64,000 nt of DNA from assembly GCA_900549015.1 (NCBI GenBank), contig URMH01000001.1, forward strand, positions 87,775 to 151,774, in the 5' to 3' direction. This document shows positions 11,608 to 56,608 of this stretch, piece after piece (the stretch's first letter is position 1; each line of letters begins with the position of its first letter). Source of the DNA: an uncultured Blautia sp. (GTDB lineage Bacteria > Bacillota > Clostridia > Lachnospirales > Lachnospiraceae). The notes under the pieces are model-generated. The model was not told the DNA's origin, did not search any database, and saw only the letters and a program-made list of their open reading frames with translations. The position numbers and the translations under genes are program-made.

Positions 11608-12373
11608 AAAACAATCCGTTCGAAATAATGAAGACTGGAAGAATGCGCTTGATCACATTGAAGAGACGGTGCCAAAGAAAGAACTGGATTCCCTTGTGAA
11701 AAAGACAGTGAAAGACATCAAAGAGAAATGCAAGGGGAAAAAGGCAGCCTATGCATGGAGTGCGGGAAAAGACTCACTGGTACTTGGAGAGATATGCGAG
11801 AAAGCCGGCATTGATCAGAGCGTCCTTGTAAGGTGTAATCTGGAATATCCGGCATTTATTGCATGGATAGAGCAGAATAAACCTTCTGGCCTTGAGATTA
11901 TCAATACCGGACAGGACATGGAATGGCTGAAAAAGCATCCGGATATGTTATTTCCGGATAAAAGCAATAAGGCAGCGCAGTGGTTCCATATCGTACAGCA
12001 CAGGGGACAGGCGCGATATTATAAAGAACATCAGCTGGAAATACTCCTGCTCGGACGCAGAAAGGCAGACGGCAATTATGTTGGAAAAGATAATATCTAC
12101 ACTAATTCAGCCGGAATCACCAGATACAGCCCTCTTGCAGAGTGGAGGCACGAAGATATCCTTGCATACATTCACTATTATGATGTGAAGCTCCCGCCTA
12201 TATATGACTGGGAGAAGGGATATTTATGCGGTACACATCCATGGCCTGCCAGACAGTACATGGAGACAGAACAGCAGGGTTGGAAAGAAGTTTACGACAT
12301 TGATAAGACCATAGTTGAAAATGCGGCACAGCATTTCGAGGGAGCCAGAGATTTTTTAAAAGCTATCAAATAG
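11597..12373 (+). CDS. PAPS-reductase-like PP-loop protein (DndC/IbrA-like), copy 1
   Basis: PP-loop AYAWSAGKDSLVL; start overlaps the transporter stop (ATGCTCGGTAG). Confidence 0.55.
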   Translation: MLGRKQSVRNNEDWKNALDHIEETVPKKELDSLVKKTVKDIKEKCKGKKAAYAWSAGKDSLVLGEICEKAGIDQSVLVRCNLEYPAFIAWIEQNKPSGLEIINTGQDMEWLKKHPDMLFPDKSNKAAQWFHIVQHRGQARYYKEHQLEILLLGRRKADGNYVGKDNIYTNSAGITRYSPLAEWRHEDILAYIHYYDVKLPPIYDWEKGYLCGTHPWPARQYMETEQQGWKEVYDIDKTIVENAAQHFEGARDFLKAIK

Positions 12374-20461: not shown

Positions 20462-21640
20462 GTGGCAACAAAACTGAAAGGCCTGGAAGTGGGTAAAGTA
20501 GATTTCGTTGATGAAGGCGCAAATCAGAGAGCTGATATCAAACTGCTGAAAGGCAAGAATAAAGCAGAGGAAACATCAGACCCGGAAATCGGACTATTTA
20601 AACGATTCCTGAACTGGATTAGCGGAGAAGTGCAGAAATCAGCCACGACATTTGATGAACAGATCAACGCTGTGAGCATGGACGCAATCCGGGATGAAAT
20701 CTGGTCTGTATGTTACGCCCTGCAGAATTCACTTAATTCAATCCTGTGCGACCCAGAACTGGACAGCAGCGGGAAGCAGAGTGCAATGGATACAAGCATT
20801 GAACAGTTCGCTACAGCTATGAAGGAATACATTCCCGGATGGGCTGGGGGAACATCTGCAAAAATCAAAAAGAATCTGGATGCACCTGACGAAACAGATC
20901 TTCCCATGGTGATGAAAGCGCATAGCAATCTGGAGGAAATCATTCAGAAATCCGTAGAAACGAAAGGAGAATTGGAAGACATGATTAAAATCGACAAGTC
21001 AAAAATGTCTGCTGAGGAAAGAGCGGCATATGATGAACTTATCAAAAAGTTTGCCGTAGAGACAAACGAGGAGCCGTCTATCGAGAAGAAAGCACCGCAG
21101 AAAAGCGAAAAAGAGGAAAACCCAGACGTTCTCGATGATGATGGAGCTGAAAAGAAAACAGATACAAAGAAATCTTTTACACCGCCAGAACAGAATACAG
21201 ACGATGATATTTACAAAGGACTGCATCCTCTTGTAAGAGAAAAACTGGAAGCTCTCGAGAAAAGAGCGGAGGAAGCGGAAGACAGAGAACTTTATGCAGT
21301 TGCTAAGAAGTACGAAGTTCTTGGAGAGAAGCCAGAAGAACTGGCTAAGTCCTTGAAAACACTGAAAAGTGCAGGTGGAACTGCCTACAATGATATGATC
21401 AGCATTCTCGACAGAAATGTGGCAATGGTCAACAACTCTGGCGTATTTGGAGAAATCGGAAAATCATTCTCTGGCGGAACTGCAGCAGTCAAGAAGTCTG
21501 CAGCAGAAGGAAAAATCGATACGATTGCAAAGGGATTGATTGAAAAAGATCCTTCCATGCCATATAACATGGCGCTGGCAAAAGCCTGGGAAGCACATCC
21601 GGAGCTTATGGCTGAGTATGAAGACGAAGCCGGATACTAA
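20462..21640 (+). CDS. putative scaffolding protein
   Basis: Highly charged and coiled-coil, between the minor head genes and the major capsid gene; GTG start after AGGAGGAAG. Confidence 0.45.
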   Translation: MATKLKGLEVGKVDFVDEGANQRADIKLLKGKNKAEETSDPEIGLFKRFLNWISGEVQKSATTFDEQINAVSMDAIRDEIWSVCYALQNSLNSILCDPELDSSGKQSAMDTSIEQFATAMKEYIPGWAGGTSAKIKKNLDAPDETDLPMVMKAHSNLEEIIQKSVETKGELEDMIKIDKSKMSAEERAAYDELIKKFAVETNEEPSIEKKAPQKSEKEENPDVLDDDGAEKKTDTKKSFTPPEQNTDDDIYKGLHPLVREKLEALEKRAEEAEDRELYAVAKKYEVLGEKPEELAKSLKTLKSAGGTAYNDMISILDRNVAMVNNSGVFGEIGKSFSGGTAAVKKSAAEGKIDTIAKGLIEKDPSMPYNMALAKAWEAHPELMAEYEDEAGY

Positions 21641-21651
21641 GAAGGAGGCGA

Positions 21652-22086
21652 ATGATAATGGGTAAAAATTTTAATGGAACACAGATCAACCAGTCACCAA
21701 CTATTTCCGAAAAGGCAGGAGCAGATGTTGCTGACATCCGTAACCTTATTCTGAAATACGATACTGATGGCAATGTGGTTGTCGCTGCCGATGGCACAGC
21801 ACCTCTGCTTGGCGTTTCTATTATCGAAGGTGGATATAATGACATTTCCGGTGTAGAAGCTGGAAAAGTTAATAAGGGTGAAGACGTTGATATCCTGATC
21901 AAGGACATCGGATTCGTCATTGCTTCCGCTGAGATCAAGAAAGGGCAGGAGGTTACTGCGACCACCGGAGGAAAAGCGGCAGTTGCGGCAGCTGGTGATT
22001 ACGTGATCGGGGTAGCTCTTAACAATGTATCTGCCGGAGGCTACAGCAGACTGCAGCTTTCTAAATACCAGAAGGCAAAAGCATAA
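21652..22086 (+). CDS. putative head decoration/accessory capsid protein
   Basis: Gly/Ala/Val-rich 144-aa protein directly upstream of the major capsid gene; RBS GAAGGAGG. Confidence 0.35.
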   Translation: MIMGKNFNGTQINQSPTISEKAGADVADIRNLILKYDTDGNVVVAADGTAPLLGVSIIEGGYNDISGVEAGKVNKGEDVDILIKDIGFVIASAEIKKGQEVTATTGGKAAVAAAGDYVIGVALNNVSAGGYSRLQLSKYQKAKA

Positions 22087-41716: not shown

Positions 41717-43072
41717 ATGAAGACATATTGCCGAAGAATGGATATTTCTGGCGAAAATTTCATCAGGAAATACATAGCTGCATTTATATATGACAAGCTA
41801 GAAAATGGTAATATGCCGAGTATTTTTGCTTACTATGGAAGCATAAGTAAAAATGAGGCTAGAAGGCGGTTGGAGAATTCGCCGGAATTTGTAGCATCTG
41901 TGATCGATCAGATTGCGTATGAAATGTCGTGGCATTTGAAGACCAGAACTGTAAGGGAACATATCTATATGGTAGTTCCGGAAGAGAAACTTGTGAAAAA
42001 TGTTGATATAGTAGATGGAATGAGCGGAAAAATTAGAACGCTAGGACTTGAAAAGATGATCATGCAGCTATATGAGGTGTTGGCCAAGGAAGCGGCAGAT
42101 GAGTTGTGGACGGCAAAAGTCGGACTTTTTCAAGTTGCATCAATACCTGGAAGAGGACAAGCTTACGGCAAAAAATACATCGAACGATGGATGTCGCGTG
42201 ATCCGGAAGGAACTAAATATTGCGTTCAGTCAGATATAAAAAAATGCTATCCCTCTATGTCACATGATAAAATATTAGAATTTCTTCGAAGAGATTTAGG
42301 AAAGTCAGATATGTTGTTGTACTTGTTTGAGACTTTGATTGGATTGTATTCTGAAGCAAAGGTGCAGAATAAAGAGAAAGATTGCAAACATGGGATTTTT
42401 ATAGGCTCTCCGGTGTCGAAAGATCTGTGCAATTATTATCTATCTTATTTGTACCATTATTGCACAAATGAACTTTATGAAATGAAGACCAGACGAGGGA
42501 AGACAACAAGAAAAAGATTGATTTATCATATCATGATTCAGATGGATGATATCATTCTTTTTGGCTCTAATAAGAAAGATCTTCATAAGGCAATGCTGCT
42601 TGTTATTGAATTCGTAAAATCTACACTCTGTCTAAAGATCAAAGATTCCTGGTCGTTATTTCGTACAGGTTATGTTGACAGAAACGGAAAACAAAAAGGA
42701 AGGGATTTAGACTATATGGGGCTTGTGTTCCATGGACAGAATTTAATCAAAAGATGTTATTCCGGAAAAACAGTGACAATACGGAATGTGTCAACAAGGA
42801 TAAGAGCATCAATATTCCTAAAGGCTCGCAGGAAAATTCATAGATTTGCGAAAAAAATAAAGAACAAAAAGATTATAGGTAGTAAATTCGCCATGAGTAC
42901 CATAGCATATAACGGTTGGTTTGTAACAACAGACTCCTTTCTTGTGAGGGTTGCAGAATGTTGGGATCAACTTATTTCGATGGCTAAAAATATAATCAGC
43001 CGTTATGCGAAACAGAAAAGCTATGCTATGGAAAAATATTATAAGAAGTGGAGGAAATTGAATTATGCATAA
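41717..43072 (+). CDS. DGR reverse transcriptase
   Basis: RT motif 2 QSDIKKCYPSMSHDKILEFL, motif-4-like GIFIGSPVSKDLCNYYL, and motif 5 region HIMIQMDDIILFG with QMDD in place of YxDD; RBS AGAGGA. Confidence 0.75.
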   Translation: MKTYCRRMDISGENFIRKYIAAFIYDKLENGNMPSIFAYYGSISKNEARRRLENSPEFVASVIDQIAYEMSWHLKTRTVREHIYMVVPEEKLVKNVDIVDGMSGKIRTLGLEKMIMQLYEVLAKEAADELWTAKVGLFQVASIPGRGQAYGKKYIERWMSRDPEGTKYCVQSDIKKCYPSMSHDKILEFLRRDLGKSDMLLYLFETLIGLYSEAKVQNKEKDCKHGIFIGSPVSKDLCNYYLSYLYHYCTNELYEMKTRRGKTTRKRLIYHIMIQMDDIILFGSNKKDLHKAMLLVIEFVKSTLCLKIKDSWSLFRTGYVDRNGKQKGRDLDYMGLVFHGQNLIKRCYSGKTVTIRNVSTRIRASIFLKARRKIHRFAKKIKNKKIIGSKFAMSTIAYNGWFVTTDSFLVRVAECWDQLISMAKNIISRYAKQKSYAMEKYYKKWRKLNYA

Positions 43073-45298: not shown

Positions 45299-46747
45299 AT
45301 GAAAACGAATATAATGGGAACTGCAGTTGCTACGGTCCAGCAGATGCAGTCATATATACAGAAAGTTAATCCGGCAGTACCTAAATCCGTAATCGATATG
45401 GTTGAATATTATATATCAGAAGGAAAAACGGAAGGAGTAAGGGGAGATATCGCCTTTGCGCAAAGTTGCCTCGAAACAGGTAATTTCACATTCAATGGTT
45501 CTGCCGTAACATTGGACCAGAACAATTTTGCCGGAATCGGCGTTACAAAAAATGGTATGAAAGGGAATTCGTTCTCTCATCCATGGATCGGCATCCGGGC
45601 ACAGATCCAGCATCTTAAAGCATATGCATCTAACGAAAAACTGTACGGTGTATGCGTGGATCCTCGTTTCTGTTATGTGAAAAGAGGAATAGCCCCATAT
45701 GTTGAATGGCTTGGGATACAGGAAAATCCACAGGGCGGAGGCTGGGCCGCAGGGAAGAATTATGGATCAAAGATATTGGAAATTCTGGCGAAGATAATTG
45801 CGATGCCAGAAGCGAATAAGGAGGATGTTACAATGAATCTTAACACAAGTTTAATCAGCAATAACAACAGCTATGCAAATCAGGTACCTAAATACATCGT
45901 TATCCATAATACAGATAACTTTGCCAAAGGAGCAAATGCAAAGGCACATGCAAAGGCCCAGCATGACGGAAATTTCTCCGGCTACTCTGCTCATGTATAC
46001 GTTGATGATACCGAGGCTTATCAGGCAACTCCATTCGACAGAGGCGCTTGGCATGTCGGCGTTAACTACGGAGGTGGTCTTTTCGGAATTTGCAACAACC
46101 ACAATTCCATTGGCATTGAGATGTGTGTGCAGGCAGGGTATAATTACGAAAAAGCGTTCCAGAACACTGTTGAGATCTGCAAGATGCTGATGAAGAAGTT
46201 TGGAATTGACGCAAATCATGTGGTATCCCACTATGATGTGTGTGCGAAGAATTGCCCTTCTGCAATCCGGGCAAAAGGTGACTGGAACCGTTTCAAGCAG
46301 CTGATCGGTGCAAAGACGGCAGCTACAACTGTAGATAAATATTACAGAATCCGGAAAACCTGGGGCGACAGTAAGAGTCAGATCGGAGCGTACAAAAATC
46401 TTGAAAACGCAAAGAAAAACTGGAAAGAAGGTTACACAATCTTCGATTGGAACGGAAAAGCCGTATATCCAGAACAGAAAAAAGACACTTCATCAAGCGA
46501 AACAAAAGTTAGCCTGACCGAGAAATTAAATATTCAGCTTCCAGTGCTGCAGTCCGGAGCAGAAGGTTCGGCAGTACGTTGCCTGCAGGCAATACTCGGA
46601 GTTGCCGTTGATGGAGATTTTGGAAAGAATACCAAGACGGCACTTAAAACATTCCAGAAGAATGTCGGCATCGATGATGATGGTTGCTGTGGCCAGAATA
46701 CATGGAAGAAAATTGCTGACCACATGAATGCAAATACATTCAAATAA
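45299..46747 (+). CDS. endolysin: N-terminal glucosaminidase, central N-acetylmuramoyl-L-alanine amidase (Amidase_2), C-terminal PG_binding_1
   Basis: IAFAQSCLETGNF (glucosaminidase), SAHVYVDD..AWHVG..NHNSIGIEMC (Amidase_2/PGRP), LQSGAEGSAVRCLQAILGVAVDGDFGKNTKTAL (peptidoglycan-binding domain). Confidence 0.75.
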   Translation: MKTNIMGTAVATVQQMQSYIQKVNPAVPKSVIDMVEYYISEGKTEGVRGDIAFAQSCLETGNFTFNGSAVTLDQNNFAGIGVTKNGMKGNSFSHPWIGIRAQIQHLKAYASNEKLYGVCVDPRFCYVKRGIAPYVEWLGIQENPQGGGWAAGKNYGSKILEILAKIIAMPEANKEDVTMNLNTSLISNNNSYANQVPKYIVIHNTDNFAKGANAKAHAKAQHDGNFSGYSAHVYVDDTEAYQATPFDRGAWHVGVNYGGGLFGICNNHNSIGIEMCVQAGYNYEKAFQNTVEICKMLMKKFGIDANHVVSHYDVCAKNCPSAIRAKGDWNRFKQLIGAKTAATTVDKYYRIRKTWGDSKSQIGAYKNLENAKKNWKEGYTIFDWNGKAVYPEQKKDTSSSETKVSLTEKLNIQLPVLQSGAEGSAVRCLQAILGVAVDGDFGKNTKTALKTFQKNVGIDDDGCCGQNTWKKIADHMNANTFK

Positions 46748-46903
46748 TAACAAAACAGGTGCTTTTTAAAATATGTTTGCTTCAAAATTTGCCTTACAGG
46801 GTATAAAATATATCACGCAGTTTATAACAGTATTTGATATAATCTAACAAAAGTCCTTCCGATATATCAAGAGGTGCTAAATTATAACGGAAGGAGCAAT
46901 GGC

Positions 46904-47164
46904 ATGATTAAAATTTTACTGTCAAAAAAGCTTGGGGAGATGAGACTTACTCAGGCAGATTTGGCGAGGGCAACCGGAATAAGACCCAACACCATCAACG
47001 AGTTGTACCACGAGCTTGCAGATAGGGTGAATCTGGAACACCTCGACTTGATTTGCGAAGCCCTGGATTGTGAGCTGGATGAATTGATTGTTAGGGTACC
47101 GAACAAGGAATCAGCCATAACCCACACTCGCCAGGGAACTCAAAAACCCGGCAGAAAGAGGTAA
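46904..47164 (+). CDS. small HTH_26/XRE-type transcriptional regulator
   Basis: LGEMRLTQADLARATGIRPNTINEL HTH; extended -10 TGATATAAT upstream at 46840-46848. Confidence 0.5.
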   Translation: MIKILLSKKLGEMRLTQADLARATGIRPNTINELYHELADRVNLEHLDLICEALDCELDELIVRVPNKESAITHTRQGTQKPGRKR

Positions 47165-47186
47165 CCGCTGCAACGGTTACCTCTTA
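47160..47186 (+). terminator. hairpin GGTAACCG CTGCAA CGGTTACC plus T-rich tail; a second hairpin AAGAGGGG..CCCCTCTT follows at 47192-47209 (shared end of the convergent genes)
   Basis: 8-bp perfect stems. Confidence 0.5.
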
Positions 47187-47208
47187 TTAAAGAGGGGGTT
47201 TCCCCTCT

Positions 47209-47652
47209 TTATTTCACTTCTTTTAAATTATAATCCAATGAATCGTACAAATAATCTGTATCAAATCCCATATCTTTGTAACCTTGCAATACAGTTTTAA
47301 CATAACGGCTAGATGGCCTTCCCACAGTGGCTGAGTCAGGCAGGAGGTATATCATAGCCTTTTTCCTAGTGCCGTTTTTTAATTGTACAAATACATTTCT
47401 CTTTTTATAAAATCTCGGATATCCCTCGTACAGATCAAGAGCCTTCTCATTTTTGCTATCGATATTCCAAACAGCAACAGGAACCCTACTTCCTTTTTGC
47501 CTTTTGACGGTTGCATAAGATCCTGTGTGGCTTCCTCTGTAAAGCAATTTCCAATTTATCAGATATCCGGTAAATGCGACTGTCGCTCCAGGACAACGGT
47601 ATGACATTTGCTGTACGTTAAGATTACTTCCGTATGCTACATATAAACTCAT
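47209..47652 (-). CDS. gamma-glutamyl cyclotransferase-like (AIG2/GGCT fold) protein
   Basis: N-terminus MSLYVAYGSNLN..R.PG matches the YGSN-type GGCT signature; RBS GGGGAGAAAGGAAA on the minus strand. Confidence 0.6.
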   Translation of the reverse strand: MSLYVAYGSNLNVQQMSYRCPGATVAFTGYLINWKLLYRGSHTGSYATVKRQKGSRVPVAVWNIDSKNEKALDLYEGYPRFYKKRNVFVQLKNGTRKKAMIYLLPDSATVGRPSSRYVKTVLQGYKDMGFDTDYLYDSLDYNLKEVK

Positions 47653-47699
47653 GGTATTTCCTTTCTCCCCGTAAAGCCGTTAGGTCAGCCGATTTGTGA

Positions 47700-48626
47700 T
47701 TAAGCTACATGTTCTGCATTTGCATTCTCACGAAGCTGTTTCATCATGTGAAGTCTGCATGTTTTGAACTCATCACCATAAAGTCCAAGTCTGTTTGTGA
47801 GGATATTATACATTAAAGTGACTTTTTTCTTTGCTGTGTATCCGTTCATGGTTCTGAATACGACTTTATCATCAGATTCGATGGACCATGCAGAGAGTGC
47901 TAAACAAAACTGTACATATGCTTTGATCTTTCCTGCATGAAGAGTGCTGTTAAAAAGTCTGAATTCGACAGTTCCTTTCTGGAAGAAGCTATGAAGATTC
48001 AATGCGTGGTATCTTGTAGAGTTATAATGCTGATGATTGATTCCACCACAGTAGCCATCGTTTGCTGGGCTGTACCAAATTTTCTCAACGGAATCGGTTG
48101 TGATGTTTTTGTCTTTTTTCATGGTATCAAGTAAATTCTTGCAAACTGGCTGACACCAACGATATTTTCTGTCACCTACTGCAAGCGCATCGTAAATGAT
48201 TTCCTGTCTGCTATACATGAAATTTACCAGACGGCGAAGAGAAGTTGCGGTATGGTTCGCTCCGTCTACATGAATATGGATTCCGCATGAACTGTGAGGA
48301 ACTCCACCGATTTCTCTGAATTTACGGATGATTGCCTGCAGTGTATCAAGATCTTCGTATTTAAGAACCGGTGTTACGAATTCAACTCTGTATTCGTCCA
48401 TGTTCTCGGTTCCAACTTTACGAATTGGATGAATTGAGCTGTCTCGCATTACCTTCCATTTTCTTCCCTGTGAATCCTGAATGGTTCTTGTCTGATAGCA
48501 GGTGTGATCTGGTCTGGAAGCTGTAGTTCCGATGATTTCTGCAACTGCATCAGCAGCCATCTTTCTTGAAATACCTGTAAATTCAACCTCAACACCGTAG
48601 TTCTGTTTCTTTAAAAGTTCTGACAT
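47700..48626 (-). CDS. putative amidoligase (Amidoligase_2, glutamine-synthetase/GCS2-like fold)
   Basis: YGVEVEFTGISRK...RKWKVMRDSS...VEFVTPVLKYEDL...SSCGIHIHVD matches the Amidoligase_2 family core; RBS AGGAGGAAAA. Confidence 0.7.
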   Translation of the reverse strand: MSELLKKQNYGVEVEFTGISRKMAADAVAEIIGTTASRPDHTCYQTRTIQDSQGRKWKVMRDSSIHPIRKVGTENMDEYRVEFVTPVLKYEDLDTLQAIIRKFREIGGVPHSSCGIHIHVDGANHTATSLRRLVNFMYSRQEIIYDALAVGDRKYRWCQPVCKNLLDTMKKDKNITTDSVEKIWYSPANDGYCGGINHQHYNSTRYHALNLHSFFQKGTVEFRLFNSTLHAGKIKAYVQFCLALSAWSIESDDKVVFRTMNGYTAKKKVTLMYNILTNRLGLYGDEFKTCRLHMMKQLRENANAEHVA

Positions 48627-48698
48627 ATCATTTTCCTCCTATTATCTCTCAAACCTCGCACCGTCTATGCGAATGTTTGTTCTGTTGTTTATGTTTGT

Positions 48699-48726
48699 AT
48701 ATTACCATATGTACCGTACATGTCAA
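48699..48726 (-). promoter_or_regulatory. sigma-70-type promoter (TTGACA-16-TAATAT on the minus strand) with ATGTACGGTACAT operator-like palindrome in the spacer
   Basis: Reverse complement of 48699-48726; palindrome at 48709-48721. Confidence 0.45.
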
Positions 48727-48836
48727 TAGTTTATTGGAGAAAATCTCTAAAATAATGAAGAAAAATGTTGACAAAATGAAGATATAGTGATAAACTATAA
48801 TTGTAGCAAGGAGATAGCAGGAAAGGAGTTAGAGAA

Positions 48837-48974
48837 ATGGAAAAAGACATAATGACTACATTAGAATTTAAAACCGTTATGGAAATGGTCGTGTTGATCA
48901 TCGAGAACAGTAAAAATAAAGAAGAGGCACTTGAAAAAATCAAGAACCTCTCCATTTTAAAAGAAAATAATTAA
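48837..48974 (+). CDS. small hypothetical protein (45 aa)
   Basis: Not in the ORF track (<60 aa), but a strong RBS GGAAAGGAG lies 7 nt before the ATG. Confidence 0.3.
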   Translation: MEKDIMTTLEFKTVMEMVVLIIENSKNKEEALEKIKNLSILKENN

Positions 48975-49084
48975 GAACTAAGCGAATAGACACCGAGCGG
49001 ACTCCGAAACTTCCTGCTTCCGCTCGGTACCTAAGAAAATAATAGCAGGAAGAAAAAAATAAGTCAACAGAAAGTTGGTGTATT

Positions 49085-49285
49085 ATGATATCGTACAATC
49101 CGCTTTGGCACACGCTTCTTGATAGAGGTATGAATAAGGGAGATCTAAAAGACGCAACCGGATTAAGTTATGGGACTATGGCTTCTATGGGAAAGAACGA
49201 GCCAGTCAATCTGAAACAGATAGATAGAATATGTAAAGCTCTTAATTGCGGCATCAGTGATGTGATAGAGTATATACCTGATTAA
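49085..49285 (+). CDS. small HTH_26/XRE-type transcriptional regulator
   Basis: MNKGDLKDATGLSYGTMASM HTH; paralog-like to 46904..47164. Confidence 0.45.
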   Translation: MISYNPLWHTLLDRGMNKGDLKDATGLSYGTMASMGKNEPVNLKQIDRICKALNCGISDVIEYIPD

Positions 49286-49461
49286 CATCACTGCAATAAA
49301 TAATACGATTTATTCCCGTGATGTTAGAGTGATGTTTGGAACTGTTGCAAATAATAATACAACGTGGTATATTTAATAAAAGCCCGCCTCTCTTATTTTA
49401 TTTAATACATGATAACACGAAAAAGCAGCCTAGTGTTATTGAGTTTGAATAAAAAAAGGAG

Positions 49462-49496
49462 ACCGGAAATCCAGCGTTTATGCGGGTTTCCGGGCT
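49462..49496 (-). terminator. intrinsic terminator on the minus strand (CCGGAAA..TTTCCGG stem, then TCTCCTTTTTTT)
   Basis: Reverse complement shows a 7-bp stem followed by a T-run; directly downstream of the ATPase gene. Confidence 0.55.
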
Positions 49497-49533
49497 CTTA
49501 CTATGTGGTTGAGTACAGATTGAGTACAAAAAC

Positions 49534-51111
49534 TTAACGTTTTCTTCTTTTGGGAAGTGAAGCTTTAAAAAATCGGATTAGAGGATAGTGGATAGTCATA
49601 GGCATTGTAGGACTCAAATCAGTATCTCCTTTAAATGAAAACCGAGGGTTAGAGCCATAATTTCCAATAACACCAATTTCATATAAATCTTTAAGAATAT
49701 GTGGAGTTTTTCTGTTTTTAGCTAAGGTTTCAACTTCTTCAAAAAAGTCCCTATTACTATCAATGTTATTTTGGAAATCTTTTATTTCAAAAGGCAAGGC
49801 TAAACTGGTTAATGATTTCTTGATTCCTTCAACTTCTGCATCAGAATACTTTGCAGTTAATACTTCTTCAAATTCTATCCAAGACTCTTCCGCATATGTT
49901 TTTCGTACTGAATCAAATATTTCTTGATCGAAAAATGATTTTTGCCCGTGTTGTTTTTGTATTATAGAAAAAAGACGAATGATGTCACGTGGTTTATACC
50001 ATGTTTGATCTAATAAGTAATTTTCTATAGGAAGTTTGCTTTCCCCTATTGTAGGAACAAAATAGGTATTCCAAATATCAGTAGATTCTTGCAATCCAGC
50101 TAATTTTTCGCTGTAATGAATTCTTTTTTCTAACATCTTTAGTAGGGGATGATTATGGATATTTCCGCCTTTCTGCTCCCATGAAATAGTTACACCAAAA
50201 TCTAAAATGACTTTATTAATCTCCATTCCTTTAGAAATGATATTTTTGTAAACTTCATTTCTGATTGTTGCGATCAAATGAACATTATAGTTTTGAGTAC
50301 GATTAATTTCGTTAAGAGATTCAATTGCAAAAATTAAATCTCTAATTAGCGTGATATCACGTTGGTAATCTTTATTTTTCTTTAGAGATAATTCAAGTTC
50401 ATCTACTAATATGTATATAGTATTTTCAACTGGTTTCAAATTAGTATATAAAAATATAATTTGTTTGGCGACAGAGGAAAAAGATGCAGTAGTTTTAGAT
50501 GAATCTGTCCATTCAAAGTCAAAGTTAATTTTACCAAAATCGCTAAGATTAAGTTCCAGATTTCCACGTTTCATTTTAGGTAGAATCTTTTTTATTTGGT
50601 CAGCAGCATTGTTTTCTCCGTATACAGCTTTGATTAAAGAGCATAACTTTATCCAAGTATCATCAGTTCGATCAAAAACTCCATATTCAGTCTGAGATAA
50701 TCTATTTATGATAACTTTAATTAAATAAACTTGCCACGCAAGTGTACAATTCAAAGAAATATCTGTAGGAATATCGCTTTCAATCACTTCTTCAAAACTG
50801 TTTGAAGGTACTGCAGTTCTTTTTAATTGATTTCTTTGTTCTGTATCTACATCTTTTTTAAATCGAATAAATTCTGTGAAATTAGTTTCTGGATTTTCGA
50901 GAATTTTACTTTCTATATATTTGAGTAACATTGTTTTTCCAGTACCTTTATTTCCGAATATATAATAGGTTGTTCCATCAAGTATTTTATCAATAGGTAC
51001 ATTTGGAAATTCAAAAAATAGTCCTTTGCAAGTATCTTGACCGTATTCAAGGAATTCATTGTATCCATCAATTTTTCCCAAATACATATCTTTTATCATT
51101 AATGGTGCCAT
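49534..51111 (-). CDS. P-loop NTPase (AAA-like) of unknown function; candidate defence/abortive-infection effector
   Basis: Walker A YIFGNKGTGKT, Walker B IYILVDELE; 525 aa; AT-rich codon usage unlike the flanking DNA. Confidence 0.5.
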   Translation of the reverse strand: MAPLMIKDMYLGKIDGYNEFLEYGQDTCKGLFFEFPNVPIDKILDGTTYYIFGNKGTGKTMLLKYIESKILENPETNFTEFIRFKKDVDTEQRNQLKRTAVPSNSFEEVIESDIPTDISLNCTLAWQVYLIKVIINRLSQTEYGVFDRTDDTWIKLCSLIKAVYGENNAADQIKKILPKMKRGNLELNLSDFGKINFDFEWTDSSKTTASFSSVAKQIIFLYTNLKPVENTIYILVDELELSLKKNKDYQRDITLIRDLIFAIESLNEINRTQNYNVHLIATIRNEVYKNIISKGMEINKVILDFGVTISWEQKGGNIHNHPLLKMLEKRIHYSEKLAGLQESTDIWNTYFVPTIGESKLPIENYLLDQTWYKPRDIIRLFSIIQKQHGQKSFFDQEIFDSVRKTYAEESWIEFEEVLTAKYSDAEVEGIKKSLTSLALPFEIKDFQNNIDSNRDFFEEVETLAKNRKTPHILKDLYEIGVIGNYGSNPRFSFKGDTDLSPTMPMTIHYPLIRFFKASLPKRRKR

Positions 51112-51134
51112 AACGTCTCCTTTTTTTTAATTAT

Positions 51135-51737
51135 TTAAAGTGGCAATAATGCTCGTTGCAACTCTAATTCCACTTTTTCTTTCGTCTCTGCTATTTCATC
51201 TATAGTTGCCTGTGTAGCTTCATTTGGATTATCACCAGCGGATTTCAATGCACTCTGGTAGATGTAATTCATTTTTTCCCATTTCAATAAGTCATTAAAT
51301 ACCTTATAACTTCTGATTTTCAGCAATGCGTCCTGCAAGGACAAGGTATGTGCTTTCCCTCTGGCCGTATATTCGATTTCAAGATAAGAAGAAAGCACCG
51401 GATTCAGTTGGATGGATACGGTATCATCTTTTAACATCTTGTCTTCTCCACGATCTCCGCTGATCTGGAGGATGCCGGAATTGCAAAGAACCATAAGTAC
51501 ACCCATCAGATCACCGACTGTTTCCAGACGAAGCCCGGCAGTATCACTGCCATTCAAAGCATTATAACTGACACCGAGTGCAGCTGCAATTTTCTCTAAC
51601 TGAGGAGGTTGTGGCTGCATTTTATTGGTTTCGTATTTTCGGATAGAAACCGGATGGATACCGGTCAGCTCAGCCAGTTTATCTTGCGTGATTCCGATTT
51701 GCTTTCTGCAGTATTTGATTTTTTCTCCTATGGTCAT
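51135..51737 (-). CDS. HTH-XRE DNA-binding protein with C-terminal domain of unknown function
   Basis: IKYCRKQIGITQDKLAELTGIHPVSIRKYE HTH; 23 nt upstream of the ATPase gene on the same strand. Confidence 0.55.
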   Translation of the reverse strand: MTIGEKIKYCRKQIGITQDKLAELTGIHPVSIRKYETNKMQPQPPQLEKIAAALGVSYNALNGSDTAGLRLETVGDLMGVLMVLCNSGILQISGDRGEDKMLKDDTVSIQLNPVLSSYLEIEYTARGKAHTLSLQDALLKIRSYKVFNDLLKWEKMNYIYQSALKSAGDNPNEATQATIDEIAETKEKVELELQRALLPL

Positions 51738-51769
51738 TCTTATCGCCCTCCATGTATCGAGATGGCTAC

Positions 51770-51778
51770 ATTATACCA
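51770..51778 (-). promoter_or_regulatory. extended -10 promoter (TGGTATAAT on the minus strand) for the HTH-XRE/ATPase operon
   Basis: Reverse complement of ATTATACCA. Confidence 0.4.
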
Positions 51779-51815
51779 TGTTTTAAAAAATTTTTCTACT
51801 AGCATTTCAAAATAC

Positions 51816-51872
51816 TTGACAATAGCGAAGTCGCTACATATAATGGGGATATAAAATGTAGCGACAACGCTA
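51816..51872 (+). promoter_or_regulatory. consensus sigma-70-type promoter TTGACA-17-TATAAT with two TAGCG-N4-CGCTA operator palindromes (51823-51836 in the spacer, 51859-51872 downstream)
   Basis: Exact consensus hexamers; two 14-bp palindromes. Confidence 0.55.
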
Positions 51873-51892
51873 TAAAAAAGGAGGATGCATAT

Positions 51893-52081
51893 ATGGCAGA
51901 AAACAACAAGATTTATATTACTGCAAATGAACTCGCAGAAATGCTGGGTGTTTCTGTAGGTCATGCTTACAAGCTGATCCGTAAGCTGAATCAGGAACTG
52001 GAAAAAGAAGGATTTTTGGTGATTGCGGGCAAAGTTCCCAGACGCTATTTTGAAAAACGCTGGTATGGTTTCAGTGCATAG
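51893..52081 (+). CDS. xis: excisionase/HTH_17-like DNA-binding protein
   Basis: ITANELAEMLGVSVGHAYKLIRK HTH; directly upstream of the integrase gene. Confidence 0.5.
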   Translation: MAENNKIYITANELAEMLGVSVGHAYKLIRKLNQELEKEGFLVIAGKVPRRYFEKRWYGFSA

Positions 52082-52092
52082 GAGGTGGTCGA

Positions 52093-53157
52093 ATGAAAGC
52101 GGAAAAAGATAAGAAAACCGGGAAATGGTTGATTCAGTATCGTTATACGGATTGGCAGGGAAAACGCCGGAAATCCACTAAAAGAGGTTTTGCGACCAAA
52201 AGAGAGGCGGAGGAATGGCTTCGAAATTTCCTTATTACGCAAAAAGCGGACTTTGATATGAAGTTTGAGGATTTTTGGAAGATGTACTGTGCAGATATGG
52301 AGACTCGCCTGCGGGAGCATACCATGAGAACGAAAAAGTATATCGTGGAGCTGAAAATTCTCCCGTATTTCGGGAATAAGCGGGTAAATGACATTACTGC
52401 AGCTGACATCCGTCAATGGCAGAATGAATTGATTAAAATGGGCTATTCACCCACTTATCTGAAAACAATCAATAATCAGTTGAGCGCAATCTTTAATTAT
52501 GCGGTTCGATATTACGATTTGAAAAGTAATCCCTGTGCAAAAGCCGGAAGTATGGGTAAGAGCAAGGCAGAAGAAATGGATTTCTGGACAGGAGAGGAAT
52601 TTAGGAAGTTTATCGATAGTGTCATGAACAAAAGACTTTCTTATATGGCATTTATGACCTTGTACTGGACGGGGATGCGTATGGGAGAGCTTCTGGCTCT
52701 GAATCCGAAAGATGTAGATCTTGAAAAGAGAACAATTTCTATCACAAAATCATATCAACGTCTTGGCAAGAAAGATGTGATCACTCCACCAAAGACACCG
52801 AAAAGCAAGAGAGTGATTACCATTCCAGAGTTTCTGGCTGCAGATATCAAAGATTATATGGACAGCTTATATGAGTTGCAGGAGAACGACAGGTTGTTTC
52901 CCATTACAAAATATTATCTGGAGCATGAAATGCAGAGAGGAATTAAAGAAAGTGGAGTAAAGCGGATAAGGGTACACGATTTGAGGCATTCCCATGCAAG
53001 TATGTTGATTGAACTGGGATTTTCACCGTTGGAGATTGCGAATCGGCTTGGACATGAAAAAGTGGAAACTACGCTGAATACCTACGCGCATCTTTATCCA
53101 AACAAACAGACAAAACTGGCTGAACGGCTGGACAGTGAATACAGGGAGGATTTGTAA
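52093..53157 (+). CDS. int: tyrosine site-specific integrase
   Basis: IRVHDLRHSHASMLIELG and LNTYAHLY catalytic region; N-terminal SAM-like DNA-binding domain. Confidence 0.8.
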   Translation: MKAEKDKKTGKWLIQYRYTDWQGKRRKSTKRGFATKREAEEWLRNFLITQKADFDMKFEDFWKMYCADMETRLREHTMRTKKYIVELKILPYFGNKRVNDITAADIRQWQNELIKMGYSPTYLKTINNQLSAIFNYAVRYYDLKSNPCAKAGSMGKSKAEEMDFWTGEEFRKFIDSVMNKRLSYMAFMTLYWTGMRMGELLALNPKDVDLEKRTISITKSYQRLGKKDVITPPKTPKSKRVITIPEFLAADIKDYMDSLYELQENDRLFPITKYYLEHEMQRGIKESGVKRIRVHDLRHSHASMLIELGFSPLEIANRLGHEKVETTLNTYAHLYPNKQTKLAERLDSEYREDL

Positions 53158-53522
53158 TGAGTGGATTAGATAAAGATAGAAAACGCAATCAGACAGTTTG
53201 TTTCCGGATGACACCTGAGGAACGCAGAGAATTAGAAGCGCGCATTATAGTGAGTGGACTGCCGAAAGGAAACTATTTCATTCAGTCTGTACTCCATCAG
53301 GAAGTAAAGATTGCGGTCGGTAAATATCAAAGTGATCGGTTAAGCCTTGAAATACGGCGGCTGTGGGAGCGTTTGGATTATCTGGAAACAGAGGATTTAT
53401 ATGAGGTACTGGCAGACTGCCGGGCACTAATGAAACAGGTAATTGAAATCACTGGTAATGGTTGTTTAGCAGCTTGGACAGCAAGTGATTTTAAAACAGA
53501 GATATTGGAAGATGAAAAATAA
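53157..53522 (+). CDS. MobC-like relaxosome accessory protein
   Basis: QTVCFRMTPEERRELEARIIVSGLPKGNYFIQSVL resembles the MobC family. Confidence 0.4.
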   Translation: MSGLDKDRKRNQTVCFRMTPEERRELEARIIVSGLPKGNYFIQSVLHQEVKIAVGKYQSDRLSLEIRRLWERLDYLETEDLYEVLADCRALMKQVIEITGNGCLAAWTASDFKTEILEDEK

Positions 53523-53627
53523 AAGCCTTTAAGTATCGGCAAACACCTAAAGGCGGAGACTTGGTAGAAAATCCAAATCAATCACTGAGGTTATTCTACC
53601 AAAGTCTCCACCATCTTTCAACAGAAA

Positions 53628-54641
53628 ATGGAGGTAATTTTGGATAACAGAAGAAACGAACCGAATTTAAAACTAATAAATATGGAACAAGTAGAGATAG
53701 AAAAAATAGGCTGGCTGCTTTATCCCTTTATTCCCTTTGGGAAAGTTACGATCGTGCAGGGAGATCCCGGTGAGGGCAAGACCACAATGGTGTTGCAGAT
53801 TATTGCAAAGCTGACAAAAGGTGAGGCAGTATTACCATCGGGCAGTGATGAACCAGCCTTGGAGGAAAAAACAATGGATCTGGAGCCGGTAAATGTAATT
53901 TATCAGACTGCAGAGGATGGATTGGGAGATACCATTAAGCCTCGACTTCTTTCCGCAGGTGCAGACTGTTCCAGAGTGATGGTGATTGATGATAACGATC
54001 AGGCGCTGACTATGATGGATGCCAGATTAGAAGAAGCCATCATACAGACAAAAGCACGCCTTGTAGTTTTAGACCCGATACAGGGGTTTCTGGGGACTGA
54101 TGTAGATATGCACAGGGCAAATGAAATCCGCCCCTTGATGAAGCGTGTGGCTGTGCTTGCTGAAAAATATCATTGTGCGATTATTTTAATCGGTCACATG
54201 AACAAAAACAGTAATGGGAAATCGTCATACCGTGGACTTGGCTCTATTGATTTTCAAGCAGCAGCCAGAAGCGTGCTGATTGTCGGAAGGATCAAGAATG
54301 AACCGGAAATACGTGTTGTGTGTCATGTGAAAAGCTCCCTTGCACCGGAAGGGAAATCCATTGCATTTCGTTTAGACAAAGATGCTGGATTTGAATGGAT
54401 TGGGGAATATGACATCAGTGCAGATGATTTGTTGAGCGGAGACAACCGGGGACAGAAAATTCATGCAGCAAAGGAATTTCTGAAGGAAGTCCTGGCATCT
54501 GGTTCTGTAGCACAGACAAAGGTGGCAGAAGAGGCGGAAAGCAGGGGAATTAAAAAGAAAACACTATGGAATGCGAAGAAGGAACTGGAAATTGATTCTG
54601 TAAAAATTGGTAACCAGTGGTTCTGGATGTTGCCTGAATAA
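53628..54641 (+). CDS. RepA-like RecA-fold ATPase (AAA_25-like) replication/mobilization protein
   Basis: Walker A GDPGEGKTT, Walker B LVVLDPIQ; start codon uncertain. Confidence 0.5.
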   Translation: MEVILDNRRNEPNLKLINMEQVEIEKIGWLLYPFIPFGKVTIVQGDPGEGKTTMVLQIIAKLTKGEAVLPSGSDEPALEEKTMDLEPVNVIYQTAEDGLGDTIKPRLLSAGADCSRVMVIDDNDQALTMMDARLEEAIIQTKARLVVLDPIQGFLGTDVDMHRANEIRPLMKRVAVLAEKYHCAIILIGHMNKNSNGKSSYRGLGSIDFQAAARSVLIVGRIKNEPEIRVVCHVKSSLAPEGKSIAFRLDKDAGFEWIGEYDISADDLLSGDNRGQKIHAAKEFLKEVLASGSVAQTKVAEEAESRGIKKKTLWNAKKELEIDSVKIGNQWFWMLPE

Positions 54642-54711
54642 TATTGGGAAGATGGCAAGATTACCATCTCTTTAAGAACAGGGAATCTTGCTATCTTGAA
54701 AGGAGCTATGG

Positions 54712-54945
54712 ATGAAAAATGTACAAATACCACAGGAATTATTTATGAAACTGCTCCGATATCATCTGCTTGATGATGATAGTTGTACTGAAGATGTGAA
54801 AAAAGGATTGGAGCAGAAAATGAAAACTATGGTGGAACGTGAATTATATACGAAATCAAAAACCGCTCCAACAGAGGAAGAACGGGAAAAAGCCCGACAG
54901 GAGTATCTGGACAGGCGGGGAATACAGGCTGACTTTCGATGGTAA
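54712..54945 (+). CDS. hypothetical small protein
   Basis: ORF with weak signals only. Confidence 0.25.
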   Translation: MKNVQIPQELFMKLLRYHLLDDDSCTEDVKKGLEQKMKTMVERELYTKSKTAPTEEEREKARQEYLDRRGIQADFRW

Positions 54946-55099
54946 TTCTTCTTTGAACGCCATATGACAGGGGCGTGGCACGCTCCTGTATAAATGGCAG
55001 ACAAGGAAAAGTTGCAGATATGAGGACGGAAGTACACCGACCGCAGGGAGGAATAGCACCGCAGGGCGCAAGGGTACTTTTGATGGACGGTACGGCTGT

Positions 55100-55190
55100 C
55101 GAAAGTGCTTTTGCGTTACTTTTGACAAAAGTAACAAAACCACCTTGACGGGCACGAATACATTTTATGTGCCGTATCCGGCACTGTTTA
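55100..55190 (+). promoter_or_regulatory. candidate oriT: perfect 10-bp inverted repeat GTTACTTTTG/CAAAAGTAAC (55115-55135) and nested hairpins GGCAC..GTGCCG TATC CGGCAC (55151-55184)
   Basis: Inverted repeats immediately upstream of the MobV relaxase gene. Confidence 0.4.
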
Positions 55191-55213
55191 GAGAATGTGA
55201 GGTGAAAAATAGG

Positions 55214-56608
55214 ATGATGAAAAGAACAATCAGCGGTATGACTGGAACAGGTTCTCTTGCTCATAACAGACGGGATTTTATTGCAGAAAATGTTAATCCG
55301 AATAGAGTATATCTGAACATCTGTTACCGGGATGAAAACCTAAAGGATGTTTACAAAGAACTGTTTGATGAATCGGTAGAACGATATAATGTTGGGAAAA
55401 GAAATGACCGGAAGATTACGAATTATTATGATAAGATCCAGCATGGAAAGCAGGAGAAGTTGTTCCATGAGGTGATTTTCCAGATTGGAAATAATAAAGA
55501 TATGGCTGCAGGGACACCAGACGGAGATCGTGCGGTGAAAGTATTAGATGAATATATGCAGGATTTTCAGAGACGAAATCCAACACTCCGGGTATTTTGC
55601 TGTTATCTGCATCAGGACGAAGCTACCCCACATCTACATATTGATTTTGTGCCTTATGTGACCGGGTGGAAGGGAAAAGGAATGGATACAAGAGTTTCGC
55701 TGAAACAGGCATTAAAAAGCCTTGGATTTCAAGGTGGTGCCAAGCATGATACAGAATTGAATCAATGGATTAATCATGAAAAAGAAGTTTTGGCAGAGAT
55801 TATGGAGCGGCATGAAATCGAATGGGAGCAGAAAGGAACTCATGAAGAACATCTGGATGTGTATAATTTTAAGAAGAAGGAACGTGCAAAAGAAGTAAAG
55901 GAACTGGAACAGAAAATAGAAAATTTGACAGCAGATGTAGAAGCGGCAGAATCAGATATAAAGGCGCTTAAACAGGAAAAAGCTGATGCAAAAAAAGCCA
56001 GAGATCAAGTCAGGGAAAGCAAAGAACAGGTGGAAAAAGAACTGAAGCATATGGAGAAGCAACGGAATCAGTTGCAGCCCATCATAAATAGTATTGATAA
56101 GGAATTAAAGAATTCCGGGCAAATTAAATTAGTGTTGCCAGAAGTCGGGGCACTGGAACTGGCGTCTACATACCGCAATAAAAAGATTAAACCTCTGTTC
56201 GCTAAGATGAAGCATTATATTGCAGGATTAGCTGCAAAGGTGATAGAACTTTCCAGAGAAGCAGAAAAATGGAGAGATAAATATCAGCAGTTGAAGAAAG
56301 ATTATGATGATCTGGAAAAGGATGCTGATAAGGTGGCGGATCTGTGCAATCAGTTGTGTGATGATGTAGATAAGCTGGAAGTAATATCAGATAAATATAA
56401 TAGAGCACTGCGGATATTTGGGAGGGATACTATAGAGTCGGCAATCTGGCATGATATTCAGAGGGAAAAAGCATTGGAAGAACAAAAACGGAAAGAGCAG
56501 ATACCGAGAAAACTGAGTGACAGGCTGCAATGGGACAGAGAAAGAAGCCGGAAGTACAATATGCAGCAGAAGAAAAATAAAACTAAACGCAGAGGAATGG
56601 AGTTGTGA
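55214..56608 (+). CDS. mob: MobV-family (Mob_Pre) relaxase
   Basis: N-terminal HNRR and HLHIDFVP histidine motifs; long C-terminal coiled coil; RBS GAGGTG. Confidence 0.65.
   Translation: MMKRTISGMTGTGSLAHNRRDFIAENVNPNRVYLNICYRDENLKDVYKELFDESVERYNVGKRNDRKITNYYDKIQHGKQEKLFHEVIFQIGNNKDMAAGTPDGDRAVKVLDEYMQDFQRRNPTLRVFCCYLHQDEATPHLHIDFVPYVTGWKGKGMDTRVSLKQALKSLGFQGGAKHDTELNQWINHEKEVLAEIMERHEIEWEQKGTHEEHLDVYNFKKKERAKEVKELEQKIENLTADVEAAESDIKALKQEKADAKKARDQVRESKEQVEKELKHMEKQRNQLQPIINSIDKELKNSGQIKLVLPEVGALELASTYRNKKIKPLFAKMKHYIAGLAAKVIELSREAEKWRDKYQQLKKDYDDLEKDADKVADLCNQLCDDVDKLEVISDKYNRALRIFGRDTIESAIWHDIQREKALEEQKRKEQIPRKLSDRLQWDRERSRKYNMQQKKNKTKRRGMEL

Follow-up and report, generated by a model that had tools for sequence, protein, structure and literature searches.

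The neighborhood of amidoligase genes and AIG2 genes in Firmicutes, the latter encoding proteins with the fold of gamma-glutamyl cyclotransferase (GGCT), was reportedly described together with a functional prediction by Iyer, Abhiman, Burroughs and Aravind in 2009 (Mol Biosyst), and is presumably also mentioned in the Pfam entry of the Amidoligase_2 family (PF12224). In this study, we analyzed such a pair in a 64,000-nt stretch of DNA (hereafter the window) from an uncultured Blautia sp. (GCA_900549015.1, contig URMH01000001.1, positions 87,775-151,774 of the forward strand), where it forms a minus-strand operon at the end of a prophage that is very common in the gut. An adjacent amidoligase/GGCT pair has been listed in the C. 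clostridioforme LM41 prophages phi13alpha and phi13epsilon (PMC11318856). In the literature searched, neither an experiment on any member of such a pair nor an enzyme assay of the ligase family was found, consistent with the original prediction on this locus, which was drawn from the DNA letters alone and had described the making or removal of conjugates as predicted and without a demonstrated target. The results presented here show that the pair is a module of mobile elements, and suggest, with about even chances for the reading as a whole, that it constitutes a separately promoted phage cassette in which the ligase writes and the GGCT erases a gamma-glutamyl-type mark.

Catalytic features of the ligase and the GGCT

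The operon comprises two open reading frames (ORFs), both of which were found where the original prediction had placed an amidoligase and a GGCT-like protein:

47700-48626, minus strand: Amidoligase_2 protein of 308 aa, operon gene 1 (PF12224 and fold model; AGGAGG 8 nt before the ATG)
47209-47652, minus strand: GGCT/AIG2-fold protein of 147 aa, operon gene 2 (PF06094, PF13772 and phrog_2520; 47 nt after the ligase stop)

The assignment of the first protein to Amidoligase_2 was borne out by profile search, in which PF12224 matched residues 7-244 with an E-value of 5e-60 and 203.9 bits (cut-off 22), spanning profile positions 2-244 of 245. In addition, phrog_2443 ("amidoligase enzyme") matched the ligase at 1e-90, and a 95%-identical protein is held in nr under the label "Putative amidoligase enzyme [Bacteriophage sp.]". 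The predicted structure of the ligase displayed the glutamine-synthetase/glutamate-cysteine-ligase fold, and structure comparison of the model gave the following scores:

Plant glutamate-cysteine ligase 2gwc: 14.1
1tt4 (deposited as a predicted Salmonella glutathione synthase): 13.7
Yeast and bacterial gamma-glutamylcysteine ligases: 11.3-12.0
Glutamine synthetases: 10.9 or lower
Dop and PafA: 10.7

The top fold matches were all gamma-glutamyl-forming ligases. Meanwhile, an alignment of 60 ligase homologues (34-95% identity) revealed 16 invariant columns, including E13-x-E15, E82, H117-x-H119, R205 and E221-x-R223, a set of acidic, His and Arg residues of the kind expected for the metal and ATP site of the superfamily. 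Based on this invariant set and the fold matches, the 308-aa protein is a predicted carboxylate-amine ligase, the nearest characterized relatives of which all make gamma-glutamyl amides.

The ligase belongs to a large family of at least 5,509 clusters at 50% identity (E ≤ 0.001; 489 clusters at E ≤ 1e-30), and 7,710 of the closest 8,000 candidates (90% clustering) were significant. Some relatives reach 450-950 aa through N-terminal extensions (approximately 180 aa or more) or C-terminal ones; no Pfam match was obtained outside the ligase domain in these long homologues, and an apparent methylase fusion of one of them looks like a gene-calling artefact. In the phage PV036446 (L002, 5109-7825), the protein encoded just upstream of the ligase resembled the C-terminal half of an amidoligase (25% identity over 195 aa, E 4e-16).

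The 147-aa protein was matched by PF06094 (GGACT; 4.9e-12, 46.9 bits, cut-off 22.8), PF13772 (AIG2_2; 8.5e-12, 45.8 bits, cut-off 27) and phrog_2520 ("gamma-glutamyl cyclotransferase"; 3e-48). Human GGCT (2pn7, 2i5t) aligned to it with an E-value of 1.3e-7, whereby Y7-G8-S9-N10, recognized in the original prediction as the GGCT signature, fell on the YGSN motif, and E76 on the catalytic E98, the column of which holds Q in the E98Q entry 3cry. Since no hydrophobic segment was found in either the ligase or the GGCT, both enzymes are expected to be soluble and cytoplasmic. The families, fold and catalytic motifs of both enzymes, as well as the layout of their operon, were thereby demonstrated.

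Distribution of the pair among mobile elements

Operon conservation was checked in two sets, namely one genome per species (80 loci fetched, ligase 45-99% identical) and 80 viral contigs with ligase homologues. The order of ligase followed by GGCT on the same strand was kept in 69 of the 80 species genomes, usually with 50-500 bp between the genes (several of the remainder being cut contigs), and in 59 of the 80 viral contigs. Furthermore, tblastn matches of both genes lay adjacent on one strand in approximately 30 named gut phage genomes, as exemplified by PV036446 with matches at 20617-21504 and 21613-22044. The pair was encountered in three settings:

(a) Prophage-end cassettes, with HTH_26 genes
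(b) Ca. Heliusvirales phages, after an HNH gene and DNA methyltransferase genes and before the small and large terminase genes
(c) Conjugative elements of approximately 20 species (Lacrimispora, Hungatella, Clostridium), the pair sharing one operon with the VirB4-like ATPase gene before it and the NlpC/P60 hydrolase gene after it, with TrbL upstream

Setting (b) accounted for about 40 of the 80 viral contigs; the Heliusvirales paper makes no mention of amidoligase/GGCT genes. A DUF4314 gene followed the GGCT gene in the single Heliusvirales locus scanned, and was absent from the window and from the 80 species loci. In setting (c), the ligase starts approximately 40 nt after the stop of the VirB4-like ATPase gene (L072-L092), and NlpC/P60 directly follows the GGCT in 19 conjugative-element loci. 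An endolysin homologue was located within approximately 2-3.3 kb in 15 of 80 loci (16 when one at 7.6 kb is included). The pair thus resides on phages and conjugative elements, and not as the conserved host gene against which the original prediction had weighed its mobile cargo. Its occurrence in both Heliusvirales modules and conjugation operons indicated that it is a mobile-element module with a job not specific to lysogeny. The description of the operon as lysogeny-expressed, which had been inferred only, was therefore overstated, as the same pair lies in lytic-phase modules of Heliusvirales and in type IV secretion system operons.

HTH_26 neighbors, promoter and leader

The operon is bordered by further elements, all within a compact cassette:

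46904-47164, plus strand: HTH_26 protein (Cro/C1-type) of 86 aa (PF13443 at 2e-18), convergent with the operon
47156-47185 and 47188-47211, no strand: two back-to-back G+C-rich hairpins (terminator scan, inverted repeat I9, T-rich tails)
48627-48698, minus strand: 5' leader of approximately 72 nt with a small stable hairpin (folding; hairpin at 48656-48672 in plus-strand coordinates)
48726 to 48699, minus strand: sigma-70-type promoter TTGACA-16-TAATAT with a TG-extended -10 (promoter scan)
48709-48721, no strand: palindrome ATGTAC-N-GTACAT in the promoter spacer, ATGTACCGTACAT
48768-48796, plus strand: divergent promoter-like site TTGACA-17-TAAACT (scan), back to back with the operon promoter
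48837-48974, plus strand: 45-aa ORF with a ribosome-binding site (GGAAAGGAG upstream), no family match
49085-49285, plus strand: HTH_26 protein of 66 aa, VanU-like (PF13443 at 2e-16), divergent from the operon

The longest ORF of the 86-aa HTH gene begins with the GTG at 46874, and the ATG at 46904 has GAAGGAG 7 nt upstream. Homologues of this protein (mostly 52-92% identity) adjoin the ligase in 53 of the 80 species genomes, placed either convergently after the GGCT gene or immediately upstream in the same orientation. At loci with 56-70% identity in the ligase and 45-57% in the GGCT, the 86-aa HTH protein holds 56-92%, and a reverse search starting from it recovered a convergent ligase in 76 of 79 informative viral loci. 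The 86-aa HTH_26 protein is the most faithful partner of the ligase and probably its regulator. The GGCT gene, meanwhile, was missing in 24 of the 76 viral loci that keep the ligase and the 86-aa HTH gene, the gap between the latter two being 68-98 bp there, and several species genomes likewise keep the ligase without the GGCT; the GGCT is dispensable to ligase lineages. In one GGCT-less lineage (IMG/VR L199-L205 and L225-L245), the ligase showed approximately 80% and the 86-aa HTH protein 87-89% identity, and Faecalibacterium phage FP_Taranis (L001, 883-3262) carries the ligase with no recognizable GGCT. "Cluster 4", downstream of the GGCT gene, was recognized as the 86-aa HTH gene read in antisense.

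Orthologues of the 66-aa HTH protein (45-58% identity) were found in 23 further species loci, 25 when two near-identical ones are counted, in a divergent position 100-770 nt (mostly 170-460) upstream of the ligase. Such a divergent layout is classic for local regulators, and the 66-aa protein is probably one; its match to NF000090 VanU gave 69.8 bits, under the cut-off of 150. The two flanking HTH proteins had been called paralogous in the original prediction; both are indeed members of HTH_26, but they are merely 32% identical over 53 residues.

The 45-aa ORF and its ribosome-binding site, also pointed out in the original prediction, were both recovered: the ORF was called as a gene in all 20 places where the cassette surroundings were read (each with the exact endolysin or the exact ligase of this phage), and was intact with few amino-acid changes in all 27 near-identical variants of the cassette sequence. 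It occurred in only 2 of the 80 species genomes, and is thus specific to this phage lineage; its C-terminus reads -ENN.

The operon promoter was one of three 10-of-12 matches in the region. Since the region contained 13 promoter-like sites against 8.2 ± 2.7 expected, the scan match alone was little proof. Across more than 30 species-level loci, however, the same type of promoter was present, with TTGACA, 16-17 nt, and a TAATAT-like -10 after (C)ATATGG, 73-106 nt before the ligase start, and among the 27 variants the proportion of variable sites was 7% in the promoter and 11% in the leader versus 23% in the ligase coding sequence. The claim of a promoter of its own thus held, and this promoter was shown to be conserved across species.

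The spacer palindrome fared differently. It had been proposed as an operator, yet ATGTACCGTACAT occurs as a single exact copy in the window, and looser copies numbered 5 against 2.0 ± 1.4 expected, that is, chance level; no further operator copies could be recognized beyond chance. The only two promoter positions that vary among the 27 variants both belong to the left palindrome arm, with no compensating change, so that the palindrome is broken in 3 of the 27, and in a locus with a 99%-identical ligase (L014) the region reads ATGTGC...GTACAT. A general dyad symmetry of the homologous promoters was likewise rejected, as the mean arm length of 3.76 in 34 distinct promoters was barely above the 3.21 of shuffled sequences. 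The spacer palindrome is thus unlike a conserved operator. Clear dyads do appear in the promoters of some subfamilies, e.g., TACACT-N4-AGTGTA, so regulation at the spacer is possible.

The leader folds into a hairpin, UCGCA-UAGACGG-UGCGA, with a minimum free energy of -12.7 kcal/mol (z = -4.4). In two related loci (L015 and L025), the stem is changed on both sides with pairing preserved and the loop kept. An Rfam scan of 46500-49700 gave a chance-level match only (E 0.86), and the leader is therefore not a known riboswitch or small RNA. Transcription of the 45-aa ORF and the 66-aa HTH gene would start from the divergent promoter-like site at 48768-48796, and the hairpins at 47156-47211 are the predicted terminators of both convergent units, namely the 86-aa HTH gene and the GGCT operon.

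Position of the cassette in the prophage

Read from left to right, the cassette consists of the 86-aa HTH_26 gene, the terminators, the GGCT, amidoligase, leader and promoter in opposite orientation, and, from the divergent promoter, the 45-aa ORF and the 66-aa HTH_26 gene. The phage endolysin (Glucosaminidase, Amidase_2 and PG_binding_1 domains) ends at 46747. Within the assembly collection, 97 blocks were indexed for the exact ligase and 1,593 for the exact endolysin. All 20 places read had one and the same order, namely endolysin, 86-aa HTH_26, GGCT, ligase and 45-aa ORF, and the cassette followed in all ten places shown for the exact endolysin. As none of the 20 places departs from this arrangement, the cassette is a fixed part of the phage and not a recent insertion, contrary to the inserted cargo proposed originally. 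The right end of the prophage was delimited as follows:

49442-49457, no strand: right end of the sequence common to all prophage copies, ending ...GTGTTATTGAGTTTGAATAA, with unrelated DNA beyond

Beyond this point the contigs diverge into host genes or more than ten different integrative elements, and in a contig of the same phage, genes for a tyrosine integrase and for cI-like repressors precede the point where the window begins, i.e., they lie at the end opposite to the cassette. The prophage-end position after the endolysin, as originally described, was thus confirmed, and the cassette is the last block, at the right (attR-side) end, of a temperate Lachnospiraceae phage of approximately 60 kb. 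A Mu-like transposable phage, considered for the variable right flank, was ruled out by the left-end tyrosine integrase and repressor together with the constant break point. Lachnospiraceae hosts were represented at 99% identity by isolate MGYG-HGUT-00137 and Eubacterium sp. UBA3279.

All the hallmarks of a moron were present, that is, a promoter of its own, a terminator, an orientation against the late genes, and a location past the lysis genes but before the prophage end. Both this orientation and the sigma-70 type of the promoter are suggestive of expression from the resident prophage.

Proposed function and alternative explanations

In the proposed mechanism, the ligase would use ATP to convert a carboxylate into an acyl phosphate and join it to an amine on a cytoplasmic host molecule, as do glutamate-cysteine ligase (GCL), glutamine synthetase and PafA, the acyl donor most probably being the gamma-carboxylate of glutamate. 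The GGCT would then cyclize a gamma-glutamyl group with a free alpha-amine to 5-oxoproline, regenerating the amine, so that the pair would act as the writer and the eraser or editor of a gamma-glutamyl-type mark, with the two HTH_26 proteins setting expression from the back-to-back promoters. Because the GGCT has been lost from many relatives that retain the ligase, the ligase product would be the functional output and the GGCT its eraser or editor. We put the general writer/eraser chemistry at even to slightly better than even.

As for the target, the leading candidate, suggested tentatively, is a cytoplasmic precursor of peptidoglycan, at the free amino group of its diamino acid, or else a different envelope precursor, and a lysine of a host protein is considered unlikely. 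A modified wall precursor would alter recognition of the wall by incoming elements or by the element's own hydrolase. In favor of a wall target, two types of element that are not related to each other have a wall hydrolase beside the pair, namely the endolysin in the present phage and NlpC/P60 in the conjugative elements, and cell-wall modification by phage amidoligase modules is a published prediction (PMC11318856, PMC11945000).

Several points weigh against the writer/eraser reading and its wall target. No solved-structure relative of the ligase was found in the PDB by sequence, using either the single sequence or a 60-sequence profile, and no substrate is known for any PF12224 protein. The likeness to gamma-glutamyl ligases is at the level of the fold (10-18% identity), and glutamate as the acyl donor is therefore a guess. 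Furthermore, proximity to lysis genes is expected for any gene at this prophage end, and in Heliusvirales the pair stands beside DNA methylases and terminase, not lysis genes.

The conserved unit might be the 86-aa HTH_26 protein plus the amidoligase, with the GGCT as an optional eraser and the gamma-glutamyl-type mark placed on a host envelope precursor or host protein in the service of both the phages and the conjugative elements of gut Clostridia; we regard this as doubtful. The mark would then serve in entry exclusion, in protection from own or rival wall hydrolases, or in countering host defence, and, if true, the HTH_26-amidoligase system would be the first example on a phage of the writing and erasing of a non-ribosomal amino-acid mark for a defined role in conflict. 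The label of defence or anti-defence in the original prediction found no direct support: a search of PADLOC-DB 2.0 with the ligase, the GGCT, the 66-aa HTH protein and the 45-aa ORF gave no match at E ≤ 0.01.

The contigs of setting (b), which place the pair after DNA methyltransferase and HNH genes and before terminase, bring up DNA or nucleotide hypermodification, in which the ligase would add an amino acid to a modified base and thereby shield the element DNA from restriction. Anti-restriction is needed by phages and conjugative elements alike, and in viral metagenomes, genes for thymidine hypermodification are found together with those for amidoligases and amidotransferases (PMC8989533). 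We nevertheless hold this to be quite unlikely, since the operon here is divergent from the phage modules, with its own sigma-70-type promoter at the prophage end, and the published pathways have no place for a GGCT step. In addition, the records for the genes called at the lysis/cargo end and in the early region include no dUMP hydroxymethylase, 5-hmdU kinase or aGPT-Pplase, a weak negative given that the Pfam lists are incomplete.

Of similarly low probability is a role as auxiliary metabolic genes that aid the nitrogen or gamma-glutamyl amino-acid metabolism of the host. In PHROGs, the category given to the GGCT family is "moron, auxiliary metabolic gene and host takeover", the amidoligase, amidotransferase, GGCT and glutathione-synthase genes of a Planctomycetes phage have been speculated to aid nitrogen use (PMC10945688), and the C. 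clostridioforme prophage paper labels its genes "host metabolism" (PMC11318856). These items, however, are annotation and speculation and not gene-level tests. The pair was found almost only on mobile elements, within conjugation operons and phage replication and packaging modules, which is unusual for housekeeping, and neither a transporter nor a further pathway enzyme was linked to it.

The GGCT-less loci bear on a further explanation, namely an obligate two-step reaction or futile cycle in which gamma-Glu-X is made and immediately converted by the GGCT to 5-oxoproline and X, burning ATP and glutamate, for example as a growth brake or abortive-infection system held in check by HTH repressors. 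In glutathione-synthetase deficiency, ligase and GGCT activities do give such an ATP-burning cycle. By fold, the nearest matches of the ligase are glutamate-cysteine ligases; the best counterpart of the second protein is human GGCT, whose substrates are gamma-glutamyl amino acids; and two regulators adjoin the pair. As the GGCT is not obligatory (24 of 76 related loci and several species genomes have the ligase without it), a pure futile cycle, or a reading centered on making 5-oxoproline, is disfavored; moreover, the pair is co-transcribed with conjugation genes at loci resembling integrative and conjugative elements and with middle/late genes in Heliusvirales, and no PADLOC model matched. 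This explanation is thus very unlikely.

Finally, pupylation-like tagging is most improbable. In this case the ligase would use the terminal Glu of a small protein or peptide to couple it to lysines in proteins of the host or the phage, and the GGCT would trim the tag. However, no conserved gene for a small tag accompanies the pair: the 45-aa ORF, with its -ENN terminus, was present in only 2 of the 80 species genomes, and the DUF4314 gene found with the pair in the Heliusvirales phage is absent here and from the 80 species loci. Moreover, GCL-type ligases outscored PafA in the structure comparison.

Neighboring element and other features of the window

A separate integrative mobilizable element abuts the prophage at 49458-56608. 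In addition to a 62-aa phrog_989 protein, a NikA-like protein, an AAA_25 protein and a Mob_Pre relaxase, it encodes the following:

49534-51111, minus strand: Sll1717-family P-loop ATPase, of the mobilizable element and not the phage (GC 29-35% there)
51135-51737, minus strand: RstR-like HTH protein
52093-53157: tyrosine integrase

Since more than ten elements, or host DNA, start at the same phage end, the phage end or a shared attachment site appears to be an insertion hotspot. Farther to the right, the segment 58885-63520 encodes a NUDIX hydrolase, an ArsP_1 permease, an SBF/ACR3-like transporter and a low-molecular-weight phosphatase (ArsC-like), and resembles an arsenic-resistance cluster, which would belong to the host DNA or be carried as cargo by the mobilizable element.

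Within the prophage, a reverse transcriptase gene (RVT_1, 451 aa) at 41717-43072 lies among the tail-fibre and baseplate genes, and is possibly part of a diversity-generating retroelement. In the early region, two ORFs of 459 and 258 aa at 10228-12373 overlap by 11 nt and resemble, by length and overlap, the sodium:solute symporter family (SSF) and PAPS_reduct genes of locus L095, an odd pair for an early region.

Comparison with known systems

In butirosin biosynthesis, the ATP-dependent ligase BtrJ adds a gamma-glutamyl protecting group that the GGCT-fold enzyme BtrG removes. BtrJ is an ATP-grasp enzyme of a large biosynthetic cluster, whereas the ligase of the window is glutamine-synthetase-like and no further biosynthetic genes are linked to it. 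The GCL/YbdK-type ligases and GGCT of the gamma-glutamyl cycle are likewise distant, as the ligase is merely 12-14% identical to these ligases, without a sequence-level relation, and no glutathione synthetase partner accompanies the pair here. PafA and Dop differ from it in that no Pup-like gene is linked here, and the eraser has the GGCT fold with predicted cyclization instead of hydrolysis.

Among phage systems, the five-enzyme module of LUZ24-like phages likewise includes Amidoligase_2 and GGCT proteins of predicted function (PMC3890496, PMC11945000). The cassette in the window differs from it in having two enzymes, with no ATP-grasp, class-II amidotransferase or COOH-NH2_lig/PF14395 gene on record within approximately 10 kb. 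A "peptidoglycan modification" module of the LUZ24-like type was accordingly rejected, the neighbors being the HTH_26 genes, the 45-aa ORF and the endolysin, and the partner genes not being on record. In comparison with Heliusvirales, where the pair runs with the gene flow between DNA methylases and terminase, the operon here is divergent, with its own promoter, at the prophage end and with two HTH_26 genes.

The closest likeness is to the known Firmicutes pairs (PHROGs 2443 and 2520; the LM41 prophages and PV036446), which share the families, gene order, strand and host phylum, the identity to the phage copies being 35-52%. The module is thus of a known type, previously recognized and annotated, and its discovery adds little because the association and the prediction reportedly date from 2009 and the genes were already annotated. 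What this study adds is the HTH_26 linkage, the conserved promoter and leader, the dispensability of the GGCT, the three settings and the exact prophage boundary, which are useful for the design of experiments and not surprising. The pair is among the commonest function-unassigned enzyme modules on phages and conjugative elements of human-gut Clostridia, and finding its target would explain a function kept by three kinds of mobile element. For such work the present locus offers a convenient start, as it combines a two-enzyme operon and a defined promoter with two candidate regulators, natural GGCT-less relatives and sequenced Lachnospiraceae carriers, one of them from a cultured-genome catalogue.

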